From Rozella allomycis CSF55 (lineage: Eukaryota), in contig KE561047.1 of assembly GCA_000442015.1 (NCBI GenBank), forward strand, positions 203,341 to 267,340: a stretch of 64,000 bases of DNA, given 5' to 3'. Shown here piece after piece: positions 12,501 to 54,558 of this stretch. A program made the translations under genes and the position numbers. Below the pieces are notes generated by a model that saw only the letters and a list, made by a program, of their open reading frames with translations, was not told the origin of the DNA and did no database searches. Numbering within the stretch: the first letter of the stretch is position 1; the number at the start of each line of letters is the position of its first letter.

Positions 12501-15500
12501 CGTTGTTGTCTGATATTTACAAGATTAATAAATTGATTAAACCAGTCACTGGAAAAGATGTTGATTATATGATTGCTGTTACTGCTAGCAATGAATTGGA
12601 AGAAATGAGAAGTCGCATTTTAGATAAAGTTCGCCAAGTGTTGGAAAAATGTCATGAATACAAAGAAACGTTTGATCAGTTTGCTTATCTGTGGATTGAG
12701 AACAGACAAGATTTCTTGAAACAATTTGTTAAACAATTAAAGCAAAAGTTTGTGCAAGATGGATCTCCAGAAGAAGATTTTGTTGCTCCATTGTATCTGG
12801 ATCAATTTGAACAGCAAATTAAGAAATATGAAGATATTCACAAGACTGTTATGAGTTTGGAAGGCGATGTCACATTTTATGGCTGGTTTAAGATTGATGC
12901 CAAGCCACTGAAGCAAGCGTTGAATTTGGTAGTAAAGAAATGGTCGTATACATTGTCTAAATATTTGAGTGATGAGACAATAAAAACGTTGAATGAATTG
13001 AATTCGTTTATTAAGAGCACCAAGAAGGGACTGCAAGTGAAACCAGTTGAGGGTGATTATAGTGCGCTTGTGGCATCGATGGGATTGTTGTTGGCAGTGA
13101 AGCATAGATCGTCAATTGATAATTTGTTTGAGCCGCTGAGAAAGACTGTGAATTTATTAAAGCATCATGGAGTAGATACACCAGAAGAAGTGTTTAAATT
13201 TCTGAGTGATTTACCTGAAGAATGGAGTGATGTGAAGAAGATGGCTGTTGCGATGCGTGATTATGTAGCACCTTTGCAAGCACAAGAGGTTGATTCATTG
13301 CAAAAGAAGTGTAACACGTTTGAATACAAGATGCATTTGTTTAGAGAAGAATTTCGCAACAAGGCGCCATTTAAGTTTGATGTTGGGATTGAAAAGTGTT
13401 ACGAGTTGATAGATCAATGCCATGTTGATGTTTTGATAATTGAGAGTGAAGCAGCTGCAATGAAGTCGTCGGCTGATTTGTTTGAATTGGTTATACCGAG
13501 TTTTAAGCAGTTGGGAGATTGTAGAAGGGATATTGGAATGTTGAAGAGTTTGTGGGATTTGATTTCAATGGTGACGTATTTGTTTAATGAGTGGAAATCT
13601 ACGTTGTGGAATCAAATTGATACTGATGCGTTGGAAATCAGGTGTAGAGATTTGATGAAAGAGTTGAGAAAATTTGACAAGGAAATTAAAGGTAACTTTA
13701 CAATGTTTATTTAATATAGGTAATGTTGAAACTGGTTTATTATTAAAGGATGGGATGCGTTTAATGGATTGGATCAGATGGTGAAGGATATGATAACATC
13801 GTTGAGAGCAGTTGGAGAATTGAGAAGCAATGCAATTAGAGACAGACATTGGAAACAGTTGATGAAGACAACTGGAGTGACATTTACTTTAACAACAGAT
13901 ATGAAGTTTCAAGATTTGTTGAGTTTGCAGTTGCATAAATATGAAGATGATGTCAAGGGGATTGTGGATAGAGCTACGAAAGAGTTGAGTATGGAGAAAG
14001 TGTTGGGAGAGTTGGAAAAGACTTGGAATGTTATGGAATTCACCTATGAAGTTCATGACAGAACAAAAACACCCTTGTTAAAGTCATCTGAAGAATTGAT
14101 TGAAATATTGGAAGACAATCAAGTGTTGTTGCAGAATATGATGACATCAAAGTATGTTGCTTATTTCTTGGAAACAATTTCCAAATGGCAGAATATTCTG
14201 TCTACAGTTGATACAGTTGTTACGTTGTGGTTGGAAGTTCAAAAGACGTGGAGCCACTTGGAAAACATTTTCATTGGATCTGAAGACATTAGAACTCAAT
14301 TGCCAGAAGATACTAAAAGATTTGATGGAATTGATTCTGATTATAAGAAATTAATGGCTGAAGCATCGAAAACACCAAAGACTATTGAAGTTTGTTTGAA
14401 ACCTTCGTTATTTGAAACTTTGGAATCTTTGCAAGGTCAATTAGCGTTATGTGAAAAGAGTTTGGCTGAATATTTAGAAACAAAGAGACTTGCATTTCCA
14501 AGATTCTATTTCATTTCTAGCAGGTAATTTACTAAATAAGTGCTTAAATAAAGTGATTTGTTGGATATTCTAGCTAGAGGTAATCAACCACAAGCAGTGG
14601 CTATTCATTTACCAAAATTATTTGACAATTTAGCTGGCTTAAAGTTTAAAGGCGGCGCTGATTCTAAAACAGCTATTGGAATGTTTTCAAAAGAAGATGA
14701 ATATGTAGAGTTTTCAGAAGAATGTGAATGTGTTGGACCAGTTGAAGTTTGGTTAAACAGAGTTGTTGATGTAATGAGAAAGACATTGCGTCATTTAATG
14801 TCAGAGGCTGTTGTTACTTATGAAGAGAAGCCGCGTGAACAATGGCTGTTTGACTATCCAGCACAGATTTCTCTAGCTGGAACTCAAATTTGGTGGACAA
14901 CTGAAGTCAATGCTGCTTTTGCTAGGCTAGAAGAAGGCTATGAAAATTCATTGAAAGATTATTACAAGAAACAAGTTAATCAATTAACTGCTTTGATCAC
15001 TTTGATTCAGGGTGAATTAACTAAAGGGAATAGACAAATGATTATGACTATTTGTACGTTGGATGTTCATGCGCGTGATATTGTGGCAAAATTGATTTCT
15101 GAAAAGGCTGATAATGCTCAGTGTTTTAATTGGCAGTGTCAATTGAGATTGAAATGGGATGAAGAACAAACTGATTGTATTGCCAATATTTGTGATGCTT
15201 CGTTTCGTTACTCTTATGAGTATCTAGGAAACACTCCCAGACTTGTTGTGACTCCATTAACTGATAGATGCTACATTACATTAACACAATCTATTCATTT
15301 AATTATGGGTGGTGCACCTGCTGGTAATTTAATTCGTTATGATTGTAATTAAAGGCCCTGCTGGAACAGGAAAGACAGAGACTGTTAAAGATTTGGGTAG
15401 AGCATTAGCTATTATGGTGTATGTGTTTAATTGTTCAGAACAAATGGATTACAAATCTATTGGAAATATTTTCAAGGGATTGTCACAGTCTGGCACATGG

Positions 15501-18500: not shown

Positions 18501-21500
18501 TATTCCTGGACTGTTTCCGGATGAAGATTATGAGAATATTATTAATGCGATGAGGAATGAAGTTAAAGCTTTGGGACTTATTGATACGAGAGAAGCTTGT
18601 TGGGATTTGTTTATCAAGACTGTTAGAAAGAATTTAAAAGTAAATTGAATTTAAATGTTTAAAAAAGGTTGTGTTGTGTTTTAGTCCAGTTGGAAGTGCA
18701 TTGAGAAACAGATGCCGAAAGTTCCCAGCAATAGTTAATTGTACAATGATAGATTGGTTTTCGGAATGGCCGCAGGAAGCATTGTTGAGTGTAGCGCAGA
18801 GATTTATTGATAATTGTGATTTGGTGCCCCAAGAGTTGAAAGAGAGTGTTACAAAATTCATGGCGTTTGCGCATCAGAGTGTGAATGATGTGAGCAAAAA
18901 GTATTTGGAGAATGACAAGAGATACAATTATACAACACCCAAGAGCTTTTTAGAGTTGATTAATTTGTACAAGATAATGTTGGAAAAGAAGTCTACAGAG
19001 TTGCTGTCTAGTATGGAGAGATTGGAGAATGGGCTGGCTAAATTGCAGAGCACGGCGTCGCAGGTTGATGATTTGAAAGCAAAGCTTGCGAGCCAGGAGG
19101 TTGAATTGAGAGCCAAGAATGAGGAAGCTAATAGATTGATTGAAAGGGTTGCGATTGATACAGAAAAGGTTAATAAAGAAAAAGCTATTGCTGATGAAGA
19201 GGAGAGAAAGGTTGATGCGTTTGCAAAGGAAGTAGCAGAGAAGCAGCGCCAGTGTGCAGAAGATTTGCGGGCAGCTGAGCCAGCATTGGCAGCAGCAGAG
19301 GAAGCGTTGAATACATTGAACAAGGCTAATTTAACAGAACTGAAATCATTTGGATCGCCAACAGATGAAATTAAGAATGTAGTGGCGGCTGTTATTGTGT
19401 TGTTGTCTCCACCGGGAAAGATTGCCAAGGATAGATCATGGAAAGCTGGGAAAGCAATCATGGCCAAGGTGGATCAATTTTTGGAAACATTGATTAAATT
19501 TGACAAGGAGAATATAGACAAGAGTAATTTAGAGGCATTGGCACCGTATTTGAGTGATCCCAATTTCAATACAGAGTTTATAAAGACAAAGTCAGCGGCT
19601 GCAGCTGGGCTGTGTGGATGGGTGATTAATATAGTAAAGTATTTTGAAGTTTACTGTGATGTTGAGCCCAAGAGGAAAGCGTTGGAGCAAGCTAATTTGG
19701 ATTTGAGTGTAGCGCAGAATAGACTGGCAGAGATTCAGAATAAGATTATGGAGTTGAATAAGAATTTGAGTGATTTGAAGGCTAAATTTGAGAAAGCGAC
19801 GGCTGATAAATTGAGGTGTGAAGAAGAAGCAAAGAGAACGCAGGAAACTATTATATTGGCTAATAGGTTAGTTGGAGGGTTGGCGTCTGAGAATGTTAGA
19901 TGGGCTATTTCTGTGGACAAGTTTAAAGAGCAGCAGAAAACATTAACAGGTAATTTTAGTAGGTTTGATTTAATTAGGTATTTTAATAAACTTTCTATGA
20001 TGATTAGGTGATGTGTTACTAGCAGCAGCGTTCTTGTCTTATGTTGGATGTTTTACCAAGAAATATAGAACAGAGTTGATAACAGAGAAATGGTTGCCAT
20101 TTTTGAATGATCCCAGCAACAATATTCCCATGAGTTCTGATATTGATGCATTGAAGATATTGACTAATGATGCAGAGATAGCCAAGTGGTGTAATGAAGG
20201 GCTGCCGAATGATAGAGTGTCATTAGAGAATGCGACTATTTTTGTTAATTGCAAGAGATGGCCATTGATTATAGATCCGCAGTTGCAGGGGATTAGATGG
20301 GTGAAGAATAGAGAAAAGAATTTGAGAATAGTGAGACTTGGACAGAGAGGGTATTTGGATGTGATTGAGAAAGCAGTGAGTTCAGGGGATGTAGTGTTGT
20401 TGGAGGATATTGGTGTTAATTTGGATCCAGTGTTGGATGCTCTAATTGGAAGGAATACGATTAAAAAGGGAAAGTATATAAAGATTGGAGACAAGGAAGT
20501 TGAATATGATTCAAACTTTAGATTGATACTGCAAACGAGAATAGCCAATCCACATTATCCACCTGAAATACAAGCGCAAACTAGTTTGATTAATTTTACA
20601 GTGACGATTGCAGGGCTGGAAGATCAGTTGTTGGCTGATGTTGTTAATTCAGAGAGACCAGAACTAGAAAGAACCAAGGCAGAGTTGACTAAACAGCAAA
20701 ATGAATTCAAGATTAAATTGACAGAGTTGGAAGATTCGTTGTTGAGTAGACTGAGTGCAGCAGAGGGCAACTTTCTTGGTGATTATGCGCTTGTGGAGAA
20801 TTTGGAAACGACCAAGAGAACAGCGACAGAGATTGAAGTGAAAGTGGAGGAAGCTAAAAAGACTGAAAAGAAGATTAACGAGACGAGAGAGTTGTATCGA
20901 CCAGTGGCTGCACGGTCGTCATTGTTGTATTTTCTGTTGAATGATTTGAACCAGATTAATCCAATGTACCAGTACTCGCTAAATGCGTTTAAAGTTGTGT
21001 TTCAAGCTGCGATTAATTCAGCTGAAAAGAGTGAAGAGTTGAAGGAGCGTGTGTTTGCGTTGATTGACAATATAACATTTTCAGTGTTCAAATATACCAC
21101 TAGGGGGTTGTTTGAAAGAGATAAATTAATCTTTGTGACTCAAATGACGTTTTCTATATTGAAGCATCAGAATGATATAGATTTGGAGCAATTAGATTTT
21201 CTGTTGAGAGGCCCAGTGATATTGAATGTGAATAGTCCTGTTGAATGGTTGAATAACAATTCATGGGGGATGGTCAAGGCATTGTCTAATTTAGACTCAC
21301 TGAAGATTCTAGCGAGTGATATTGAGAATTCATCAAAGAGATGGAAAAAGTATTGCGAACATGAATCACCTGAAAATGAAAAGCTTCCACAAGAGTGGAA
21401 GAACAAGACTGCTTTAGAAAAACTTTGTATTATTAGAGCATTGAGACCTGATAGATTAACTTATGCTGTGAGAAATTTTGTTAAAGAAAAGATGGGCACA

Positions 21501-23414
21501 AAGTATATTGACAGTACAAGAGTTCCATTAAAGATTTCATTCCAAGAATCATCACCTGGCACTCCAATCTTTTTTATTTTATCCCCTGGTGTTGATCCAG
21601 TTAAAGAAGTTGAAGAATTGGGATTAAGTTTGAATTTCACTGAAGATAATGGAAAGTTTTATAATATTTCACTTGGACAGGGGCAGGAGGTTATTGCTGA
21701 ACAGAAATTGGATTTGGCGTATAAAGATGGTGGATGGGTCATGCTGCAGAATATTCATTTGACTGTCAAGTGGCTCCCTACATTGGAAAAGAAATTGGAA
21801 TCGCTCAGTCAAAATAGTCATCCTGATTTCAGAGTGTTTTTATCTGCTGAACCAAGCGCTGATCCTGCGTTCCATGTTATTCCAACTTCCATTCTCCAAT
21901 CTTCAATCAAAGTAATTGAATTTATTCTTTTAAACATTTAGATTACAAATGAACCGCCAACTGGAATGAATGCTAATATTCACAGAGCACTAGACAACTT
22001 TAAACAAGAAACACTGGAAATGTGCAGCAAGGAATCTGAATTCAAAACTATTCTATTCTCTCTTTGCTACTTTCATGCTGTTGTTTTAGAAAGAAGAAAG
22101 TTTGGCACACAGGGTTGGAATAAAGGGTATCCATTCAACACTGGTGATCTAACAATCTCTGTTAATGTTCTCTACAATTACCTTGAAGCGTCAGTCAAAG
22201 TGCCATGGGTTGATCTAAGATACATTTTTGGTGAAATCATGTACGGTGGTCACATTTCTGATGTAATTTAAACTATTATTCTAAATGTAGGATTGGGATA
22301 GAAGATTGTGTTCAGCTTATTTGGAAACATTTGTCAATGAACAGCTATTTGAAGGCGCAATGGAGTTCGCTCCTGGGTTTCCTGTTCCACCACCAAGCGA
22401 CTACAAGGAATACCATCGCTACATTGACGATCAACTGCCTCCTGAAACACCTTATCTATACGGTCTACATCCAAACGCTGAAATTGATGTATTGACTAAA
22501 ACTGCCGACAAGCTGTTCAAAACTATCCTTGAAATGCAACCACAAGAAACAGCTGGCGGCTCTGTTGTGTCAAGAGAAGAAAAAGTTAAACAGATTTTAG
22601 ATGATATTATTGAACGGTTGCCTGAATCATTCAACACTCTTGAAATGATCGCCAGAGTGGAAGAGAGAACGCCTTACATTTCAGTAGCTATCCAGGAATG
22701 CGATAGAATGGCTATTCTCACTAATGAAATCAGACGGTCTTTGAAAGAACTTGATTTGGGACTTAAAGGGGATCTCACAATCTCTGAAAACATGGAATCA
22801 CTAATGAATGCAATGTTCCTGAATGAAGTACCAAACAATCTCAACTAATATAATAGGTTCCTGAATCATGGAAGAAGATGGCTTACCAATCAACATACGG
22901 TCTCGCCCAATGGTACGCCGACCTCCTAACCCGCATCAAAGAACTAGAATCATGGGTCTCTGAATTCCAGCTCCCATCCGTCGTCTGGCTCTCCGGCTTA
23001 TTCAATCCCCAGTCATTCCTCACAGCGATCATGCAAACAACAGCCAGAAAGAACGAATGGCCTTTAGATAAAATGACGCTCAACGTTGACGTCACAAAGA
23101 AAACCAGAGAAGAGTTCAACGCACCGCCACGAGAGGGAGCGTACATTCATGGGCTGTTCATGGAAGGCGCTAGATGGGATACCGCGTCTGGTATGATCCA
23201 GGAATCGCTGTTAAAGGAACTCACACCATCTATGCCCGTTATTTATGTCAAGGCGGTGACTATTGATAAAAAGGATACAAAGGGCGTTTATGAGTGCCCG
23301 CTTTATACTACAAAGACTAGAGGACCCACTTTTGTTTGGACTTTTAATTTGAAGACTAAAGAAAAACCGCAGAAATGGACCCTGGCGGGAGTTGCTCTTT
23401 TATTGTCAATTTAA
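9549..23414 (+). CDS. Axonemal outer-arm dynein beta-type heavy chain (DNAH9/11/17 class), full length
   Basis: DHC_N1/N2, AAA1 [13 protein letters not shown]2 [11 protein letters not shown]3 [11 protein letters not shown]4 GVGGSGKQS, stalk, C-terminal [10 protein letters not shown]; about 14 intron positions join the ORF pieces. Confidence 0.95.
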
Positions 23415-25856: not shown

Positions 25857-26015
25857 TTAATAAAAATTTCTTCACACAAAACAACTGTTTTCTATCGTGA
25901 TCATTTTNGGGCTACAAATTTTATCTTTTAATATAATTTTATAATCGATTGCATAATAATTAATATAATTTTATAATCGATTGTATACGTTTTAAGATTC
26001 GCTACACTATGGGAN

Positions 26016-28043
26016 TAATGCAATAGAAGGAATATTGAAGAGATTGAATATGGAATATGCGCATGAATATACGATTCCTGTTGAATTGAAGAAAGTATAT
26101 TCGAAGTGTGACAGTCCAGTGATAGGGAGTCCGGAGCACCAAGAAATGAAAGATGTACCATACAANAAGAGTGTAGACGATGTTGTTAGATATATTGAAA
26201 CAAAATATAAAATAAATTTATTAGGAAAGATTAACTGGTTCTTGGGAAAAGGAATTGAAAGAGATGGAAATGAATTGAGAATGAGTCAAAAGAGTGCAAT
26301 AGAAGGAATATTGAAGAGATTTAATATGGACGATGCGAATGAATATACAATTCCTGTTGAACTGAAGAAAGTATATTCGAAGTGTGACAGTCCAGTGATA
26401 GGGACTCCGGAGCACCAAGAAATGAAAGATGTACCATACAGACAAGCAGTCGGAAGTTTGATTTATTTGGCGAAGTGTACAAGACCAGATATAGCATATG
26501 CAGTGAGTCTTGCGAGCAGATTCTTATCGAATCCAGGGAAAGAGCATTGGTTGTTAGTCAAGCGAATCCTCAGATACTTAAAATACACTAAAGAATATAG
26601 TTTAATAATGGATGGAATAAATGAAGATAAATTTATTTGTCAAGGATATGTTGATGCCGATNAAGTGTAGAAGACGTTGTTAAATAAATTGAAACGAAAA
26701 ATAAAATAAATTTATTAGGAGAGATAAACTGGTTTTTGGGAATAGCAATTGAAAGAGATAGAAATGAATTAACAATGAGTCAAACGAGTGCAAAAGACGG
26801 AATATTGAAGAGATGTAATATGTAAGATGCGAATGAATACACGATTCCTGTTGAACCGAAGAAGGTATACTCGAAGTGTGACAGTCCAGTGATAGGAAGT
26901 CCGGAGCACCAAGAAATGAACGATGTACCATATTGCCAGGCAGTTGGAAGTTTGATTTATTTAGCAAAGTGTACAAGACCAGATATCGCNGTAAAACCAT
27001 GCGAATCATAGTAGAAGAAAAAGAAGCAAAGTCTGGGTGCCAACCAGTTCACAAGAAGATTACCGAAGCTTTTGGTAAGAAAAGAAAATCAAGCACTACA
27101 TCTCTAAATGAACATGACACGACCACCGATGTAGTCCTTAAACCAACCAATAATGAAGTTAACTCATCCACTGAGAAGGATCTTTTATTGAAAATTTATN
27201 CGCATATGAATTAAGTCTTGCGAGCAGATTCTTATCGAATCCAGTGAAAGAGCACTGGTTACTAGTCACGCGAATTCTCAGATACTTAAAATACACAAAA
27301 GAATACCGTTTGATAACGAATGGAATAAATGAAGATAAATTTATTTGTCAAGGATATGTTGATGCCGNTAAAGGATAATGTTGCTCCACCTGTGAATATG
27401 ACTCCAGCCGCTGAAGTACCTCTAGCTGATGTTAAGACCAGATAGAGCATATGCAGTGACTCTAGCATTGGTTGTTAGTCAAGCGAATTTTCAGATACTT
27501 AAGAAACACTAAAGAATATAGTTTGATAATGAATGGAATAAATGAAGATAAATTTATTTGTCAAGGATATGTTGATGCCGATTGGGCGGCTGACAATGAA
27601 TCAAGAAGAAGTATCTTTTCAAGATAAATGGAAACTAAGTATCATGGAAAAGTCAAAGGCAAGCAACAGTAGCACTATCAACAGTTGAAGCGGAATATAT
27701 GGCATTATCAAGCGCATAGCAGGAACCATTGTGGATTAACAGTTTAATGAGTGAATGGGAGATATCTTTTGAANACATTATGGATTAAGAGTTGAATGGG
27801 TGAATTGGAGATAACTTTTGAAGCGGAATTAAGTTGTATGAAGATAACAAAGGAGCGATAGCATTGACCAAAGANTAGCAGGAACCATTGTGGATTAACA
27901 GTTTAATGAGTGAATGGGAGATATCTTTTGAAGGGGGATTTAAGTTGTATGAATACAATAAAGGAGCGATAGCTTTGACCAAGGAAACGAGCGGGAGAAG
28001 TAGGAGCAACCACATTGACATCAGGTATCACTTCATTACCGCT
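26016..28043 (+). mobile_element. Ty1/copia LTR retrotransposon pol fragments (RT C-terminus, RNase H), degenerate and internally duplicated
   Basis: PYRQAVGSLIYLAKCTRPDIAYAVS, KRILRYLK, GYVDADWA, ALSTVEAEYMALS, YEDNKGAIAL, HIDIRYHF; several partial copies separated by single Ns. Confidence 0.92.
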
Positions 28044-28598
28044 TACTTGTTATGCAAACCCGGCTATATTTCGCCCTTATGGGATTGCTAGTGTGAAAAT
28101 GAAGTGCAACAAAGCTTATCTGATGGTGTCTAGGGAAGAATCAGGGTATAAGAAGAAATCGGAAAATAGATAAACATTCCGTTACTAATCTCAACTCTTT
28201 ATAAGTTTTAATAAGTTTCTTTATTAAGTGACGAATCAGTTATAAGAAAAACCAAATCAATCCATTAAAAGAAACCACATTTATTAAAATTAAGAACCTT
28301 TGGCCTCACATTTGTCAAAACATTTCTTCATTTTTTGATCCCGAGACTTCATAAGTATGTTTTCTATCGTGATCATTGTTTAACATTAGTTTGAAGTCTG
28401 AAGATCCATGGAAAGTGTGATTTCGTCCAAAATTAAATCTATCGTTCGTGACCTTCATTTACAGTCTCCAAATCCCGAATCTATAAAAAATAAACAATAA
28501 ATTTCTTCACACATTTCTTAGCTCATTTAAATAAATTTATTCACACAAAACAAGTTTTTCTATCTTTATCATTTTTTGACATTAGTGTGATTTCGTCT

Positions 28599-28702
28599 NN
28601 NNNNNNNNNNNNNNNNNNNNNNNNNNNNNNNNNNNNNNNNNNNNNNNNNNNNNNNNNNNNNNNNNNNNNNNNNNNNNNNNNNNNNNNNNNNNNNNNNNNN
28701 NN
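28599..28702. other. Assembly gap (run of N)
   Basis: Continuous Ns. Confidence 0.99.
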
Positions 28703-28754
28703 TCACTTACCGTTTTCCAGTTTCCTCCTACGAATCCCGAATCTCAATTATCAT

Positions 28755-29496
28755 GTTGTAATAAATAAATGTGTACAAATTTTATCTTTTAATTAATATA
28801 AATTTATAATCGATTGTATACTATTTAAGATTCGCTACACTATCATGGACTCAAAAGTAGGTGTAACAAGCGATTCTTATGGCTCCAAAACGCTAATAAA
28901 AAAATAAAATAACAATTTATTGTTTTAATTTAATTTATTTATAATTAGTCACAAATGTGCCATATTAANATTTAATTTAATTTATTTATTATAATTAGTC
29001 ACAAATGTGCCATATTAATGAGCAACCCAACATGCACCTTAAAAGACATCCGCCACCTATATCTCAACAACTACCTTCACTATAGGGGTTGAAAATAAAT
29101 ATTACTTCGTATATTGGATGTTCTGAGTTCTTAGACCAAATTTGGGAGGANGTTGTCATAAATAAATGTCTACAAATTTTATCTTTTAATTAATATAAAC
29201 TTATAATCGATTGTATACTTTTTAAGATTCGCTACACTATCATGAACTCAAAAGTAGGTGTAACAAGCGATTCTTATGGCTCCAAAGCGCTAATAAAAGA
29301 AATAAAATAACAATTTATTGTTTTAATTTAATTTATTTATAATTAGTCACAAATGTGCCATATTAATGAGCAATCCAACATGCACCTTTCAAAACTTCCG
29401 CCACCTATATCTCAAGAACTACCTTTACTATAGGGGCTAAAAATAAATATTGCTTGGTATATTGGGTGTTCTCTCTTCATAGACCAAATTTGGGAG
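28755..29496. repeat. Tandem duplication of a ~345-395 bp AT-rich non-coding unit; partial third copy at ~25911-26012
   Basis: 28755-29150 and 29152-29496 align (gttgt.ataaataaatgt.tacaaatttt...agaccaaatttggga). Confidence 0.9.
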
Positions 29497-29516: not shown

Positions 29517-29570
29517 TACATACACACAGACACACACACACACACATACACACACACACACACACACACC
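29517..29570. repeat. (CA)n microsatellite, imperfect
   Basis: tacatacacacagacacacacaca...cacc. Confidence 0.95.
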
Positions 29571-34082: not shown

Positions 34083-34154
34083 TCCGCATTGGTCTAGTGG
34101 CTAGGATTTTGCGCTTTCACCGCAAAGGCCGGGGTTCGATTCCCCGATGCGGAA
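34083..34154 (+). tRNA. tRNA-Glu (anticodon TTC)
   Basis: Acceptor TCCGCAT/ATGCGGA, D-arm GGTCTAGTGGCTAGGAT, anticodon arm TTGCG-CTTTCAC-CGCAA, T-loop GGTTCGATTCC, followed by T-run. Confidence 0.96.
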
Positions 34155-34380
34155 CTTTCTTTTACGTCTTTTAACAAGACATTCACTTTATTTTTGCAAA
34201 TTTTTTTGACAGCCACATTATTTCCATTTTAATTTACAAAAGTTTTCATATATCGTATACCTTCATAATGATTAATAAAAATATGATCTGCAGTCCGTAG
34301 TAGGCTTCCTTTTTGTGAATGTTCTACTAACAAAGAACTTATTGATTCTTGATATCGGAAATTTCAGAATTTTTTTCTTC

Positions 34381-48299: not shown

Positions 48300-50342
48300 A
48301 TGCCCGAAACAAAAGAAATTCCATTTTTGCCCGGATTCACGCAAAAAAACATATCTGTACATTTCAAATGATTATTAAAAATAGAAAACAGATTTCCGTA
48401 AAGGTCACACTCTTGGTTACAAAAACGGATACGCGGTTACGACAAAACCCACTTTTGGTATAGGCGGAGATGAACTAATACATAATGGGATGGAAGAAGA
48501 TCAATTTAGAAGGCTCATCGAGAAACCGATTGATGAAACATTACTTAACTACAAGCCTGAACCATTTTTCCGAGCAGAGGCAACAAAGCCATTTATACCA
48601 GCACATGTAGCTTATGACAAACTAGTATACGCATCTAAATATATGATAAATAGGTTCTCTCATTTAAAGCATACTTTAAACAAACCGTGCATGATTCAAT
48701 GGAACAATATATACTTCGCCGTGTCAAAATTCATGTTTACCTAGAAGATGATTCTGTCGAAGTCATTGAGACGCCTCAAGAAAATAGTGGCATACCCCAA
48801 GGAGTACTTATTAAAAGACAGAGACTCCCAAAATCAGAGATTGACTATGTGCGCCCAACTGACTTTAATGTTGGTATGAATATAACAATCTATGGGAAGA
48901 CAATTAGAATCATCGATTGTGATAGCTTCACGAAAGTAATATATTTTTTTGCAGAAAACAGAAATACTTGACGGACACATTAGGAATTAAACTTAACCCA
49001 CCAGAAGAAATGCCTATTGATATCTATTTAGAAAATAGAAATAAGAAGGTTAAAAATGTGTCGAGAATTGAGCATAATGACAAACTGCGGCAGTTTCTAG
49101 AAAATGATCGAAAGGTGCTGCGGTTTTATGCTTTATGGGATGACCGTGAAAACATGTTTGGAGAGATTCGAGAATTTGTAAGCAAAAATATTTTTTTGTT
49201 ATCTAGATAGTCCATTATTTTCTGGTGGATGACTGTATTGAAGTGACTGAAGTCAGGAAACCCAATCAAGGAAGAGTTTCATTCCCTGTACTTTTAAGAA
49301 GACAGCAATTGCCAAAAAGATACGAAGGAGTTGGTAATTTATGTATGTTTTCTGTTGATATAGATACCACCTTAAGTGAAAAATACACTTGGAGGGATCT
49401 TAAAATTGGGACGCTCCTTAATGTGCTAGGGCGTCAAATGCTACTTTATAAATGTGATGATTATACTCGGGAATACTACATTCAGAATCTTGGATACAAA
49501 GATATTGAAATGAAGGAAATAAAATTCAATGACGGAAATGTAGTGAAGGAATATGAAAGGGTAAATATGTAAATGAAATTAGAAACAAGGAAATACCCCC
49601 TTATAATGGTTTTGGAACTCTCGAAGATTCTTTGGGTTCTGTAAAGCATTTGGTCTTAAAGCCGCCCAAAAAGGATTTTGTCAAAATGCTTGAAAATGAA
49701 CATAAAGTGCTTAGATTTGTAGCTTTGATGGTAATTAAACTTTTAAAACATTGACAGGAATCCACCCACAAAGAAGATTACAATAGAAAGTTTATCATCG
49801 CATACCGACTTTCAGACGATATGTTGACCATTTATGAACCTCCGCAAAGGTAAGACTTCATGTAGTTTATAACATAGGAATGCCGGCTTCATTGGCGGAA
49901 AATTTCTTGAAAGAACAAGGGTTCTGAAACCGGGTCACACTCTACAAAACTCCGAATATTACAATGCTGTAGATTTAAACATCGGAGCAACAGTCGAAAT
50001 CAATCATTATAAGTTTAAAATTATCGACGCTGATGAATATGTATACAATTATATGGAATCCAACTCGCATGCATTTCCAATGTCAGATATTCGCCAAGTT
50101 TTAAAAAAGGGGAGAATTCATGTTGATAAAATTAAAGCATTATTAAAAGATCATATTGAACACGCTGTCTCCCGTCAACAATTTCTTACCAGTTTCAGAG
50201 ACACTCACTACTTAACGCTGCATGTAAACAATCTAAATGTTCTGATAAATAGGAACTTATAACCATTGTTCGATTTTATGACTCAAATAAAAATAATCAG
50301 ATCGATGTTAAGAAGTTCATCACAGACCTTGAACAGCAATAA
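48300..50342 (+). CDS. EFHC1: EFHC1/Rib72 axonemal DM10-domain protein
   Basis: IPFLPG N-terminus, PAHVAYDK, three DM10 domains ([41 protein letters not shown]). Confidence 0.9.
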
Positions 50343-51144
50343 AAGTACTTTCTAAAATCTCCTTTATTTCCATCTACTATCAAATTTGATCCATTTATTA
50401 GTTTATTATTCATCAGAAATACTACCGCATCTGAAATATCCTTGGCGTCACCCTTAGGCTCTTCAACCTTCCTCGACATTTCAGTGCCAATTAATCCCGG
50501 GAGAATGGTGTTAACTCTCACGTTAATTTTGTTAAGCTCTTGAGATAGGCAATTTGTCATACCAATAATTTATATTCATAATGTCATACCACATATTCCT
50601 GCTTTTGATGCACCATAGCAAACTTGTCCTATATTTCCAATATCTGTCCCAACAATGCTTGAAATATTGATTATAGACTCTTATTTTTAAAGGAAAATAG
50701 GTCTACTATTTCTCTGGCCGGATAGATAGAATGACTTTAATATCAATTTTGTAAAATAGATCGGACCTATTAAATTCGTATGCAGCGTATTCACGATAGA
50801 GTCATAACTATTCAATATTAACATTATAATTTACTCTTCTTTTATCAAGAGTCTATCCCTTGCCACGCCCGCGTTATTGATCAATGCGCACAATTCCTTC
50901 TTTTGAATAAAAAAATCATTTAATTTCTATTAATATAATAAATTATCAAACATACCTTTGAAGTTCGTTCGATAGAGATTTTATCACTCAAATTTAGATG
51001 ATACCACCGTAACCTCTCATGTTCACCCCAAGGCTCAGAACTGTTGTAAGTACCATGAACAAAGATGTCGTTTTCAGTTAAAAACGTTTCTGTGATTGCC
51101 CTTCCAATTCCTTTAGAGGCACCAGTTACTATAATGTGGCGCAT
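50297..51144 (-). CDS. Short-chain dehydrogenase/reductase, FabG/CBR4-like
   Basis: VTGASKGIG, LINNAGV, NISSIVG, YGASKAG, VRVNTILPGLI. Confidence 0.85.
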
Positions 51145-51698: not shown

Positions 51699-52991
51699 CT
51701 ATCTTTTCTTATTTTCAATATTTAAAATAATACTCAACAACAAAGCCAGAGAAGACATTGTAAAAGCAACCCTAAAGCAACCTAAATATCCACGAAAAAT
51801 GAATTCATATTGATCATAACTTAAAATAAAAGTGCCGACTAGCCCACCAAGGCATTGCGACATTCCACTAAAAACAGCCAAAAAAAGACCTTGAGCCAAA
51901 GTTTTGTTACTAGCACTAGATTCATGAGAAGATACAATAACCCCAATAGCGGTCATTAAGCCAAAGCTAATGCCTTTGAAACTTTCGGCGCCTAATGAAA
52001 TAAGTTTGGGAGCAAGAGAATCGCTACCGATAACATTAAAGGCGTGTATACCAGTCCTAATAGAAGAACAAAGTTGTGCAAATATTGTCATTTTTTTCAC
52101 GCCTACAAGAGCGATAAGTTTGCTTGAGAATAACAAAAGAAGAATTTCAAATATGCAGCTGATCCAATGAGCAAATGATATCCATATTTTTTCCGCGCCA
52201 AGTCCCAAATCTTTATCTTCCATAAATCCACCGAAAAAATGCATTCCTATTGCGTGAGATATCCCGTTGAAAAGTGATATGACAAGAAAATTGGAATATC
52301 GTCTATTCAATAACAATTTCATAAAGTTGTTCTCTGTCTTCAAATCAGATTTATCAATGCTTATTTCAGATATGCCCTTCTTTTCTTTAAAATCACTAGG
52401 AACATAAATTAATATAGAAATTAATGCCAGAGTTGTGGTGATTGGGACGAAATATGCCAGAAATTTGTAATTAGAATTTCCAATCACTATTGCCATTAGA
52501 AAAATTGTCAATACATCTCCTATCGTTCCAAACAGTCTTTGCTTTCCATACATGTTATCACTGTTGGCTTTTGAAAATTGCCTCATAACAATCCGATTCG
52601 CTATAGGATACAAAGCGCTACTAAAGCAACTTATCAGAATACAAACACCTAATATTGCAGCTTCTTTCAGAACTTCGTCAACTTCACTCGGTATTGCAAA
52701 GAATAACATGAACGACATTCCCTGACAAAATGTCGCCAAAATGAGGACTATCTTTGTTTGTTGAAGTTTGTCACACAAAAAAGTCCATAGTGGCGCACAT
52801 ACAAAGGTTGTTAAAGAGAATATCGTCGCCATCAAAGCATAATGTGAACTGGGTAAGCCAAAGTAGGATTCAAAAAATTTAAGCCTAAAGGAGAAGCAAG
52901 AACTGACAAAGGAACAAAGGAAAAAGTAAAAAAGCTTTGGCTTTAGCTCAAGCCGTTGAATGAACATAAAATTTCTGCTTAGCCACATCAC
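51699..52991 (-). CDS. MFS transporter (MFSD6-like), paralog 1
   Basis: Many TM segments, YGKQRLFGTIG; similar to adjacent ORF. Confidence 0.88.
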   Translation of the reverse strand: MMWLSRNFMFIQRLELKPKLFYFFLCSFVSSCFSFRLKFFESYFGLPSSHYALMATIFSLTTFVCAPLWTFLCDKLQQTKIVLILATFCQGMSFMLFFAIPSEVDEVLKEAAILGVCILISCFSSALYPIANRIVMRQFSKANSDNMYGKQRLFGTIGDVLTIFLMAIVIGNSNYKFLAYFVPITTTLALISILIYVPSDFKEKKGISEISIDKSDLKTENNFMKLLLNRRYSNFLVISLFNGISHAIGMHFFGGFMEDKDLGLGAEKIWISFAHWISCIFEILLLLFSSKLIALVGVKKMTIFAQLCSSIRTGIHAFNVIGSDSLAPKLISLGAESFKGISFGLMTAIGVIVSSHESSASNKTLAQGLFLAVFSGMSQCLGGLVGTFILSYDQYEFIFRGYLGCFRVAFTMSSLALLLSIILNIENKKR

Positions 52992-53025
52992 ACAACTGTA
53001 CCTAAATTTACAATTTATTCATCTA

Positions 53026-54378
53026 TTAGGTTGTTTTAGCTGAAGCACATTCATGCTTTGTTATTTTCTTGTCTAAAACAAATGCCATGATAACCGAGAT
53101 AATTGACAAAAGCATAGCAATTTTGAAGCACCCAGTATATCCATACAAAAAGGATCCTTCTGAATTTTTAAGCAAAATCCAGCCGATTACGCCTGCGACG
53201 GCTGGTGATAGACCATTGTATATTCCTGAGAATAAACCTTGGGCTGTGGTCTGTAATTCCTTAGGAGCTTCTTTGGATGCAACCAACACACCTCCTGCCA
53301 TCATACACCCAAAACTTATCCCTTTAAACAATTCTCCAAAGCAAGCCAAAACAAGGTTTACAGTGTTACCTGTACCAATTATATTTAGAGAATGTGTAGT
53401 CATTCGCATCAGCATCGAGATTTGCGCAAATAATAATAGCCTGCTTATACCGAACTTCTCAGCTATATTTCTCGATATTAAAAAGAAAAATACTTCACAA
53501 ACACAACTGGACCAACCTGCTATTGAAACCCACAATTTTGATCCATTTAAACCCTTAATTGGATCTTCAACATAAGCATCAAAATAATGTGAGCCTATTG
53601 ACCTTGAAATACCATTAGCGATAGATATGATCATAAACATTTGCAAGTTTTTGTTGCATAGAAGTGTCTTAAAAGCCTCAAAAGTATCCAGTTCTCGGCC
53701 CAACTTCTTGTTATTTGCTTCAGGATCGGTCTTTTCCTTCTCGCTATTTTGATTATTTGGAAACCCAAGTAATATGAAAGATATAAAGATTGTCATTGTG
53801 ATTCCTACTCCTACGAATAGTCTCTCATAAAAGAATCCTTGGATCAAAATCGCCATTAGAGTTTTTGTGCTTGCATCCCCAAAAGTTCCAAAAAGTCTCT
53901 GCCTTCCATATAATTTCTTGCCATCATGCTTATTATTACTTTCAGTTTGAGAATCACAAAGTTCAGAAAGTACTAGCTTGTCTGTTACAGGGTAGAGCGC
54001 CGCGTTAAAACAGTTAATTAAGAAAGCAACGAGCAAAACAAAATAAAAGGTATAATCACCGAGATATCTTGGTATAAGCAAAAATGAAAAAAAGGACATT
54101 CCTTGGAGAACAGTAGCAAAAGATAAAAGTAATCTTGGCGATCTTAACTTATCATTGATGAATGCCCAAAATGGCGAGAATACAAAGGTGGTTGTTGCTA
54201 AAAATGCCATAATTAAACCATATTTTGCAGGCTCGATTCCAAAATATTGCTCGAAGAACTTTAGTCTGAAAGAATAGCACGTGTGAACAAAAGAACAAAG
54301 CAAAAAATAAATGATCTTTGGACGTATTAAATATTTGCTGTTAAGCTTTGCCAGGAAGGTTCTGAGCGACAAAGACAT
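53026..54378 (-). CDS. MFS transporter (MFSD6-like), paralog 2
   Basis: YGRQRLFGTFG, APKELQTTAQGLFSG; start uncertain (54378 or 54456). Confidence 0.88.
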   Translation of the reverse strand: MSLSLRTFLAKLNSKYLIRPKIIYFLLCSFVHTCYSFRLKFFEQYFGIEPAKYGLIMAFLATTTFVFSPFWAFINDKLRSPRLLLSFATVLQGMSFFSFLLIPRYLGDYTFYFVLLVAFLINCFNAALYPVTDKLVLSELCDSQTESNNKHDGKKLYGRQRLFGTFGDASTKTLMAILIQGFFYERLFVGVGITMTIFISFILLGFPNNQNSEKEKTDPEANNKKLGRELDTFEAFKTLLCNKNLQMFMIISIANGISRSIGSHYFDAYVEDPIKGLNGSKLWVSIAGWSSCVCEVFFFLISRNIAEKFGISRLLLFAQISMLMRMTTHSLNIIGTGNTVNLVLACFGELFKGISFGCMMAGGVLVASKEAPKELQTTAQGLFSGIYNGLSPAVAGVIGWILLKNSEGSFLYGYTGCFKIAMLLSIISVIMAFVLDKKITKHECASAKTT

Positions 54379-54558
54379 GTGTTTGACTGAAATTAGCGCA
54401 CCAGCCACATAACGACACCCACAATGATTATAATAAACAATTTTCCTTCTTCGCATTTATTATTTATATTTGATATTCGAATTACTAAACTTGTATTTTA
54501 AAAGGCTGCATTATGCGTTTGTAATTAGTGGCGGGGCAACGGTATTACGGAATAAACA

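Follow-up and report, generated by a model that had tools for sequence, protein, structure and literature searches.

Within the 64,000-nt stretch of Rozella allomycis CSF55 DNA that we analysed (contig KE561047.1, positions 203,341 to 267,340; hereafter, the window), a gene for a short-chain dehydrogenase on the minus strand is interrupted by 27 nt that open with GT, as an intron would, and end in TG. This raises the question of whether the insert is a spliceosomal intron that does without an AG acceptor, as the first-pass annotation of the sequence had proposed, or a recent insertion that damages the gene, and what would become of it in the RNA.

The host gene (50297..51144, minus; ATG at 51144-51142, stop TGA at 50299-50297) is, in its predicted function, a classical short-chain dehydrogenase of the FabG/CBR4 type with five exons. 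Without the 27-mer its coding sequence comprises 738 nt and encodes 245 aa with a single terminal stop. The protein scored 62.8 bits against Pfam adh_short (gathering score cut-off, 26.6), its nearest solved relatives are bacterial FabG and human CBR4 (PDB 4m8s, 4cql), and its alignment to a 247-position profile of 109 homologues covered 239 positions. It is divergent, with 34–41% identity to the best non-Rozella matches and a substrate loop about 13 residues shorter than in the family profile. Exon 1 (50956..51144) contributes 63 codons and the nucleotide-binding motif TGASKGIG, exon 2 (50835..50926) carries NNAG, exon 3 (50707..50807) adds further spliced coding sequence, exon 4 (50590..50679) contains the catalytic Ser and YGASK, and exon 5 (50297..50562) encodes the helix after YxxxK, the PG motif and the C-terminus in a frame open to the stop. 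All five exons are open and the SDR motifs TGxxxGxG, NNAG and S...YxxxK are all present. Intron 1 (50927..50955) has 29 nt, GTA...TAG, and a junction that is also used by the public protein model P0002 (see below). Introns 2 (50808..50834; GTA...TAG, one in-frame TAA) and 3 (50680..50706; GTA...AAG, two in-frame TAA) both have 27 nt and both coincide with alignment gaps. A decayed pseudogene should carry several independent lesions; the insert was the sole lesion found. The stop of the reductase gene (50299-50297, minus) lies only ~37 nt from the end of a convergent plus-strand ORF (50259), in keeping with a compact genome.

The insert (50563..50589, minus) has a GC fraction of 0.185, a 5' end of GTATGA, a 3' end of TTG and no AG anywhere inside. 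Read in the frame of the gene it gives G-M-T-L-TGA-I-TAA-I-I, with the TGA at 50578-50576 and the TAA at 50572-50570. Both of its borders carry the same 10-nt direct repeat, TGGTATGACA, in perfect identity. The upstream copy (50582..50591) consists of the last exon bases TG and the donor GTATGACA, and is thus the source of the GTA; the first two bases of the downstream copy (50555..50564) are the TG of the putative acceptor and the remainder opens exon 5. Between the copies lie 17 nt of AT-rich filler (50565..50581). The repeat period equals the length that needs to be excised (27 nt), so that filler plus one repeat copy make up the excised unit. Because of the repeat there are 11 equivalent 27-nt excision registers, among which only GT-TG (50589-50563) and AT-AC (50582-50556) begin and end with dinucleotides of a recognised class. 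The border ambiguity at the insert is 10 nt, as against a maximum of 6 nt across 50 other introns of the window.

Short-spaced 10-nt repeats are not rare window-wide. A total of 20 exact direct repeats of at least 10 nt with a spacing of 15–60 were observed, where 30 Markov simulations of the window averaged 6.2, and 10 of the 20 belong to a single AC run at 29518-29532. What counts at the insert is that the period is equal to the excised length. Another exact 10-nt direct repeat, GTTCCTGAAT (22815-22824 and 22857-22866, plus), brackets a 29-nt dynein intron (22828-22856); its spacing of 42 nt differs from the intron's own length and it may be due to chance (~6 such repeats are expected per window).

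Introns 2 and 3 and the insert share one frame, so the region was read through, with X at the stops, and aligned to solved structures using HMMER. The alignments to the FabG/CBR4 structures had a gap of exactly nine residues at the insert, whereas those at introns 2 and 3 shifted in place or size among three alignments. In protein alignments, homologues carry no extra residues at the insert position. We enumerated the excisions that leave the frame open at this site, and the full conserved segment, YGASKAGICGMTNCLSQEL, was restored only by those of 27 nt. The shortest GT-AG or GC-AG excision has 51 nt (50589-50539); its acceptor is the next AG (50539..50540), 24 nt downstream of the TG, and it costs the eight conserved residues GMTNCLSQ. 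The family profile drew on those 109 of the 122 stored proteins that measure 230–262 aa; against it, the product scored 178.3 bits with 27 nt removed, 167.8 bits with the insert retained and X at the stops, 152.0 bits with 51 nt removed and 120.1 bits when truncated at the first stop. Judged by these protein comparisons, a 27-nt excision is the sole predicted route to a family-conform protein. The first-pass annotation was accurate in every detail of its description of the insert (27 nt, GT...TG, no AG, in-frame TGA and TAA, 10-bp border repeat). It was also right that the next AG would give an in-frame 51-nt excision deleting a conserved segment. The gap-free alignment and the best profile score after 27-nt removal bear out that the insert must go if the protein is to conform to its family. 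Its term "obligate" is too strong, given an AG 24 nt downstream and the geometry of a TG-AG tandem.

The introns of the window provide the local rules by which the insert can be judged. In a scan of junctions between ORFs of at least 100 aa, which ignored splice dinucleotides and returned 28 junctions, 26 had a GT-AG solution (one of them spurious, on the antisense strand of a dynein gene). The two without such a solution separate distinct genes, one being a gene end followed by the next start and the other lying between two complete tandem MFS genes. A non-AG acceptor was needed at 0 of the 26 solvable junctions in the window. A broader scan of the window for obligate non-AG mini-introns by ORF logic alone was too noisy for a complete census and gave no second homology-supported case; 145 of its 254 loci had no GT-AG solution, mostly as antisense or frame-switch artefacts.

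We also compiled a catalogue of 50 introns, comprising introns 1–3 of the host gene and 47 curated from 74 loci after ambiguous rows, rows antisense to the dynein gene and rows with weak flanks were dropped. Candidates had been pre-selected as GTA...AG of 20–35 nt, so their termini are invariant by construction. Lengths ranged from 25 to 31 nt with a mode of 27 (14 of 50), and the mean GC fraction was 0.233. There was a T at -3 in 33 introns, an A at -4 in 30 and a GTAT start in 8, and exon starts had G at +1 (17/50), T at +2 (24/50) and A at +3 (21/50). Apart from GTA...AG and some A residues ahead of the acceptor, these mini-introns thus have little left by way of signals; a search for a TRAY branch motif was uninformative, the motif being absent from 11 of the 50 introns and its distances scattered. 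The insert agrees with the catalogue in length (27 nt), GTA start, GC fraction (0.185), T at -3 and A at -4, with its one misfit at -2. The first-pass annotation is borne out on the missing canonical acceptor, and in its length, 5' GTA, AT-richness and T at -3 the insert has the form of a local mini-intron. An internal AG was bypassed in 29 of the 50 introns, and the acceptor was the first AG giving at least 25 nt in 49 of them (partly by construction). This first-AG rule, counted from the donor, predicts the 51-nt product at the insert, and so does not support the earlier suggestion that the TG is an acceptor chosen by distance.

Only two obligate introns longer than 35 nt were found in the window, at 13692-13748 and 19950-20007 (plus), and their existence indicates that 51 nt is a feasible length of excision in this genome. 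Each (57–58 nt) is an exact tandem pair of mini-intron-like units, of 28 + 29 and 28 + 30 nt, with an AG|GTA joint. In alignments with human DNAH17 and DNAH9 the full 57 nt of the first pair falls in a gap of 19 residues, and the second pair was identified solely by ORF junction logic. The arrangement suggests removal in two steps (recursive splicing) or the origin of one intron next to another that was already there. In the literature that we found, the mini-introns of Rozella are the subject of a passing remark in PMC6349667, which mentions two putative introns of ~30 nt in the S23 gene of R. allomycis, and of no genome-wide characterisation; that remark agrees with the 25–31 nt seen in the window.

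The only close database protein, P0002 (R. allomycis CSF55, ROZALSC1DRAFT_28806), is identical to the window in its exon-derived sequence and terminates at ...GICGMTL, that is, at the TGA inside the insert. The exact match of the exons sets aside a dicyemid or myxozoan origin, which the 27-nt introns had at first suggested. Its source contig of 10,144 nt points to another assembly, which argues that the insert is not an artefact of a single assembly. The annotators took the insert as a stop, in a gene model that is itself a prediction. The first ~49 residues of P0002 are read antisense to a small gene on the plus strand (~51.2–51.7 kb), and 20 conserved residues (VNTLHTNLIGPIYFTKLILK) are treated as a 60-nt intron and skipped. 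Compared with the window sequence (51144-50576, minus), the model looks wrong at both ends. A protein spanning the junction was not found among matches of 30–359 aa in a set of 5.8 billion protein clusters, and a search for shorter fragments that might come from spliced transcripts (30–111 aa) returned one unrelated match.

Together with what the sequence itself shows (the insert, its repeat, and a host gene with canonical introns), these results lead us to infer how the insert arose. We propose a 27-bp insertion made up of 17 bp of AT-rich filler and a 10-bp target duplication (TGGTATGACA), a footprint that staggered-break repair or another target-duplicating insertion would leave. The duplicated exon sequence would by chance have contained a GTA, which could then act as a donor, and the total length would have happened to equal the modal intron length, so that the insert mimics a mini-intron in everything except its acceptor. 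The TG would have been copied from the exon with the rest of the repeat, making the insert a proto-intron at best. Those bases of the repeat that lie in the intron and could change freely have all stayed identical, which points to a young event, a bound on age that is weak with ~seven free sites. The earlier suggestion of a recent intron born by duplication or break repair therefore fits the flanking repeat as far as the origin goes, and "intron" is at most a putative status. As to the source of the filler, neither it nor the whole 27-mer had another copy within 3 mismatches on either strand of the 64 kb. A patchwork of local snippets was not indicated either, since the k-mer coverage of the filler by its flanks was not significant (shuffles reached its level in 872 of 5000 cases for k = 5 and 431 of 5000 for k = 6, as did 7 of 50 ordinary introns). 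No inverted termini were noted by eye on the 27-mer.

The reading that we favour, while granting it somewhat less than an even chance, is that this is a real young 27-bp insertion which has produced a crippled or leaky reductase allele. The fate in RNA, as predicted from the sequence, would then be that the spliceosome mostly retains the insert, with a stop after ...GICGMTL and presumably nonsense-mediated decay, or that it splices from the GTA donor to the first AG (51 nt), so that eight residues are missing from the helix that follows YxxxK. Use of the TG would probably be confined to a minor fraction, hence crippled or leaky. The presence of a UPF1-like gene in the window hints at degradation of any transcript in which the insert stays. 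In favour of a crippled allele, the T of the acceptor is among ten identical repeat positions, as if the TG had been copied with the target; in addition the first-AG rule holds in 49 of 50 introns, introns of 57–58 nt exist, P0002 ends within the insert and the protein set yielded none that spans the spliced junction. Against it, the gene shows no other damage, so any death must be very recent, and the likeness to a standard intron would be much coincidence for a random insertion. Moreover, the removal of 27 nt gives the best profile fit, and the P0002 model has the standing of a prediction.

The strongest rival is a working newborn GT...TG mini-intron that a U2-type spliceosome removes efficiently and precisely, leaving the gene functional; we hold this to be possible, and distinctly less probable than a crippled or leaky allele. 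Tentatively, the short distance from branch site to acceptor in introns of 27 nt could place the TG in the catalytic centre, and the AG 24 nt downstream may aid early recognition, as has been proposed for human TG-AG tandems. The form of a mini-intron is matched in every measured respect other than -2, the gene is otherwise intact, and only 27-nt excision provides the gap-free spacing from YxxxK to PG and the top profile score. However, no solvable ORF junction needed a non-AG acceptor (0/26), and the first-AG rule that fits 49 of 50 local introns predicts 51 nt. Two further points count against splicing at the TG: during exon ligation the branch adenosine is paired with the A at -2, and in yeast an acceptor UUG is spliced poorly. 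That an intron has here been caught at birth, with precise and productive removal at the TG and geometry standing in for the AG, is less likely than not, and a fresh loss-of-function allele is at least as likely as a TG-spliced intron. The weighing of the two depends on how workable a TG acceptor is, set against how far a reductive parasite tolerates the loss of a gene.

Human TG-AG tandems (Szafranski et al. 2007, PMC2374985) bear on both readings. Like these, the insert has a GT donor, a candidate TG acceptor with a pyrimidine at -3 and a purine at +1, and an AG at 24 nt; a TG followed by an AG within 28 nt is the configuration that works in human genes, which supports a newborn intron and speaks against a crippled allele. 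In the human cases described there, on the other hand, the TG is an alternative to that AG and never the sole acceptor, and AG>TG mutants activate neighbouring AGs, which argues against a newborn intron; about 0.01% of candidate human TGs are used, according to the same source. The human sites are also verified alternative acceptors in long introns, whereas the insert has 27 nt and a candidate TG, and its AG product would lose conserved residues.

New introns with direct repeats over their splice sites have been ascribed to the capture of DNA at staggered double-strand breaks and end joining (PMC3020277). As in the gained introns of Daphnia, Drosophila and Aspergillus described there, in which such repeats mark recent gains, the repeat spans both borders, insert and one copy form the excised unit and the coding sequence is exactly restored, which lends support to a newborn intron. 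Those gains are transcript-verified GT-AG introns, in contrast to the TG and the predicted splicing of the insert. Introner elements, in which a target-site duplication is co-opted as a splice site (PMC11282704), are similar in that one splice signal comes from the duplicated target, here the GTA donor. They differ in that the insert has no second copy within 3 mismatches in the window and its 17-nt filler is far too small for a transposon. Ultra-short spliceosomal introns with AG acceptors are reported from myxobolid cnidarians and Dicyema japonicum (PMC13644364), and the window introns resemble them in their lengths of 25–31 nt and their reduced GTA...AG signals, although Rozella is a fungus-like parasite and stands outside that survey of animals. 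At the level of sequence the insert shares the features of TG-AG tandems and of repeat-flanked intron gains and lacks the AG of a standard intron. It may be classed with known direct-repeat-flanked insertions that resemble intron gains.

An error in a base call or consensus, such that the true base at 50564 (minus) is A and the insert an ordinary 27-nt GT-AG intron, is improbable. One substitution would create a TAG ending, the commonest in the catalogue (T at -3 in 33 of 50), and ambiguous bases do occur elsewhere in the window (115 N at 25.9–29.2 kb). The acceptor T nevertheless lies within a perfect 10-nt duplicate and matches the upstream copy, so an error would need a tenth identical position to have arisen by chance, and no N or low-complexity sequence is near the site. 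The second assembly holds at least the first half of the insert and is silent on the T itself.

Still less probable is that a long-standing canonical intron has lately had its AG acceptor changed to TG, with a flanking repeat that is coincidental. GTA-like exon starts are common, and part of the repeat could be splice-site consensus, but five further identical bases (TGACA) and the TG match extend beyond that consensus, and border identity in the 50 other introns is at most 6 nt and itself reflects it. We give next to no weight to excision in the AT-AC register (50582-50556) as a U12-type or rare U2-type AT-AC intron: the repeat makes this formally possible with an identical product, but the 5' end, ATTATGAA, is unlike ATATCCTT, the donor consensus of U12 introns, the form of local donors is matched by the GTA register, and 27 nt is far below known U12 intron lengths. 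Removal without a spliceosome, by ciliate-like DNA excision between the repeats or euglenid-like structure-guided RNA excision, is just as hard to credit, as we know of no such system in fungi, the insert is present in both assemblies and no RNA fold brings its ends together: of 200 shuffled versions of the surrounding RNA, 194 gave a fold at least as good (z = +1.54). What speaks for it is the flanking direct repeat alone, a feature common to those systems (PMC11282704).

What the locus would mean depends on whether the TG is used. If it is, a single locus would show the birth of an intron by insertion and target duplication, with the exon donating one splice site, and ultra-short introns may relax the AG rule through geometry. 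The insert would also be the first case of a U2-type intron that needs a TG acceptor to yield a functional product, and R. allomycis, which groups with Microsporidia, would become a tractable system for intron birth and the relaxation of the AG rule. If the TG is not used, the insert would have made an ordinary young allele, with loss of function or an in-frame deletion, of a FabG/CBR4-type reductase, possibly of mitochondrial fatty-acid synthesis, in a reductively evolving parasite, and a warning that intron-like insertions can mislead gene models. The window in addition documents introns of ~27 nt in Rozella, a size that recent work treats as exceptional among animals (PMC13644364).

The remaining content of the window, with a GC content of 31–40% and the standard genetic code, fits a zoosporic, compact eukaryote. 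An alternative code with TGA and TAA as sense codons was considered and rejected, as stop-to-stop ORF lengths and gene content fit the standard one. The genes include an outer-arm-type axonemal dynein heavy chain (~9.3–23.4 kb), a partial second dynein (38–42 kb, DHC_N2 domain only), a UPF1-like helicase, enolase, glutamate dehydrogenase, an amidase and two tandem MFS transporters. At 25908-29151 the assembly seems to have resolved a repeat region poorly: single N are scattered there, a gap of 104 N brings the total to 115 N, and pieces of a Ty1/copia-type reverse transcriptase (RVT_2) occur in duplicate; an AC microsatellite lies near 29530. The two MFS genes (51702-53018 and 53029-54456, minus) are intron-less tandem paralogues that match MFS_1_like, the second also matching Nuc_H_symport, and may belong to a transporter family discussed for Microsporidia and related endoparasites (PMC6699826). 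A tRNA-Glu (TTC) at 34083-34155 (plus) was the single Rfam/ARAGORN match in the window.
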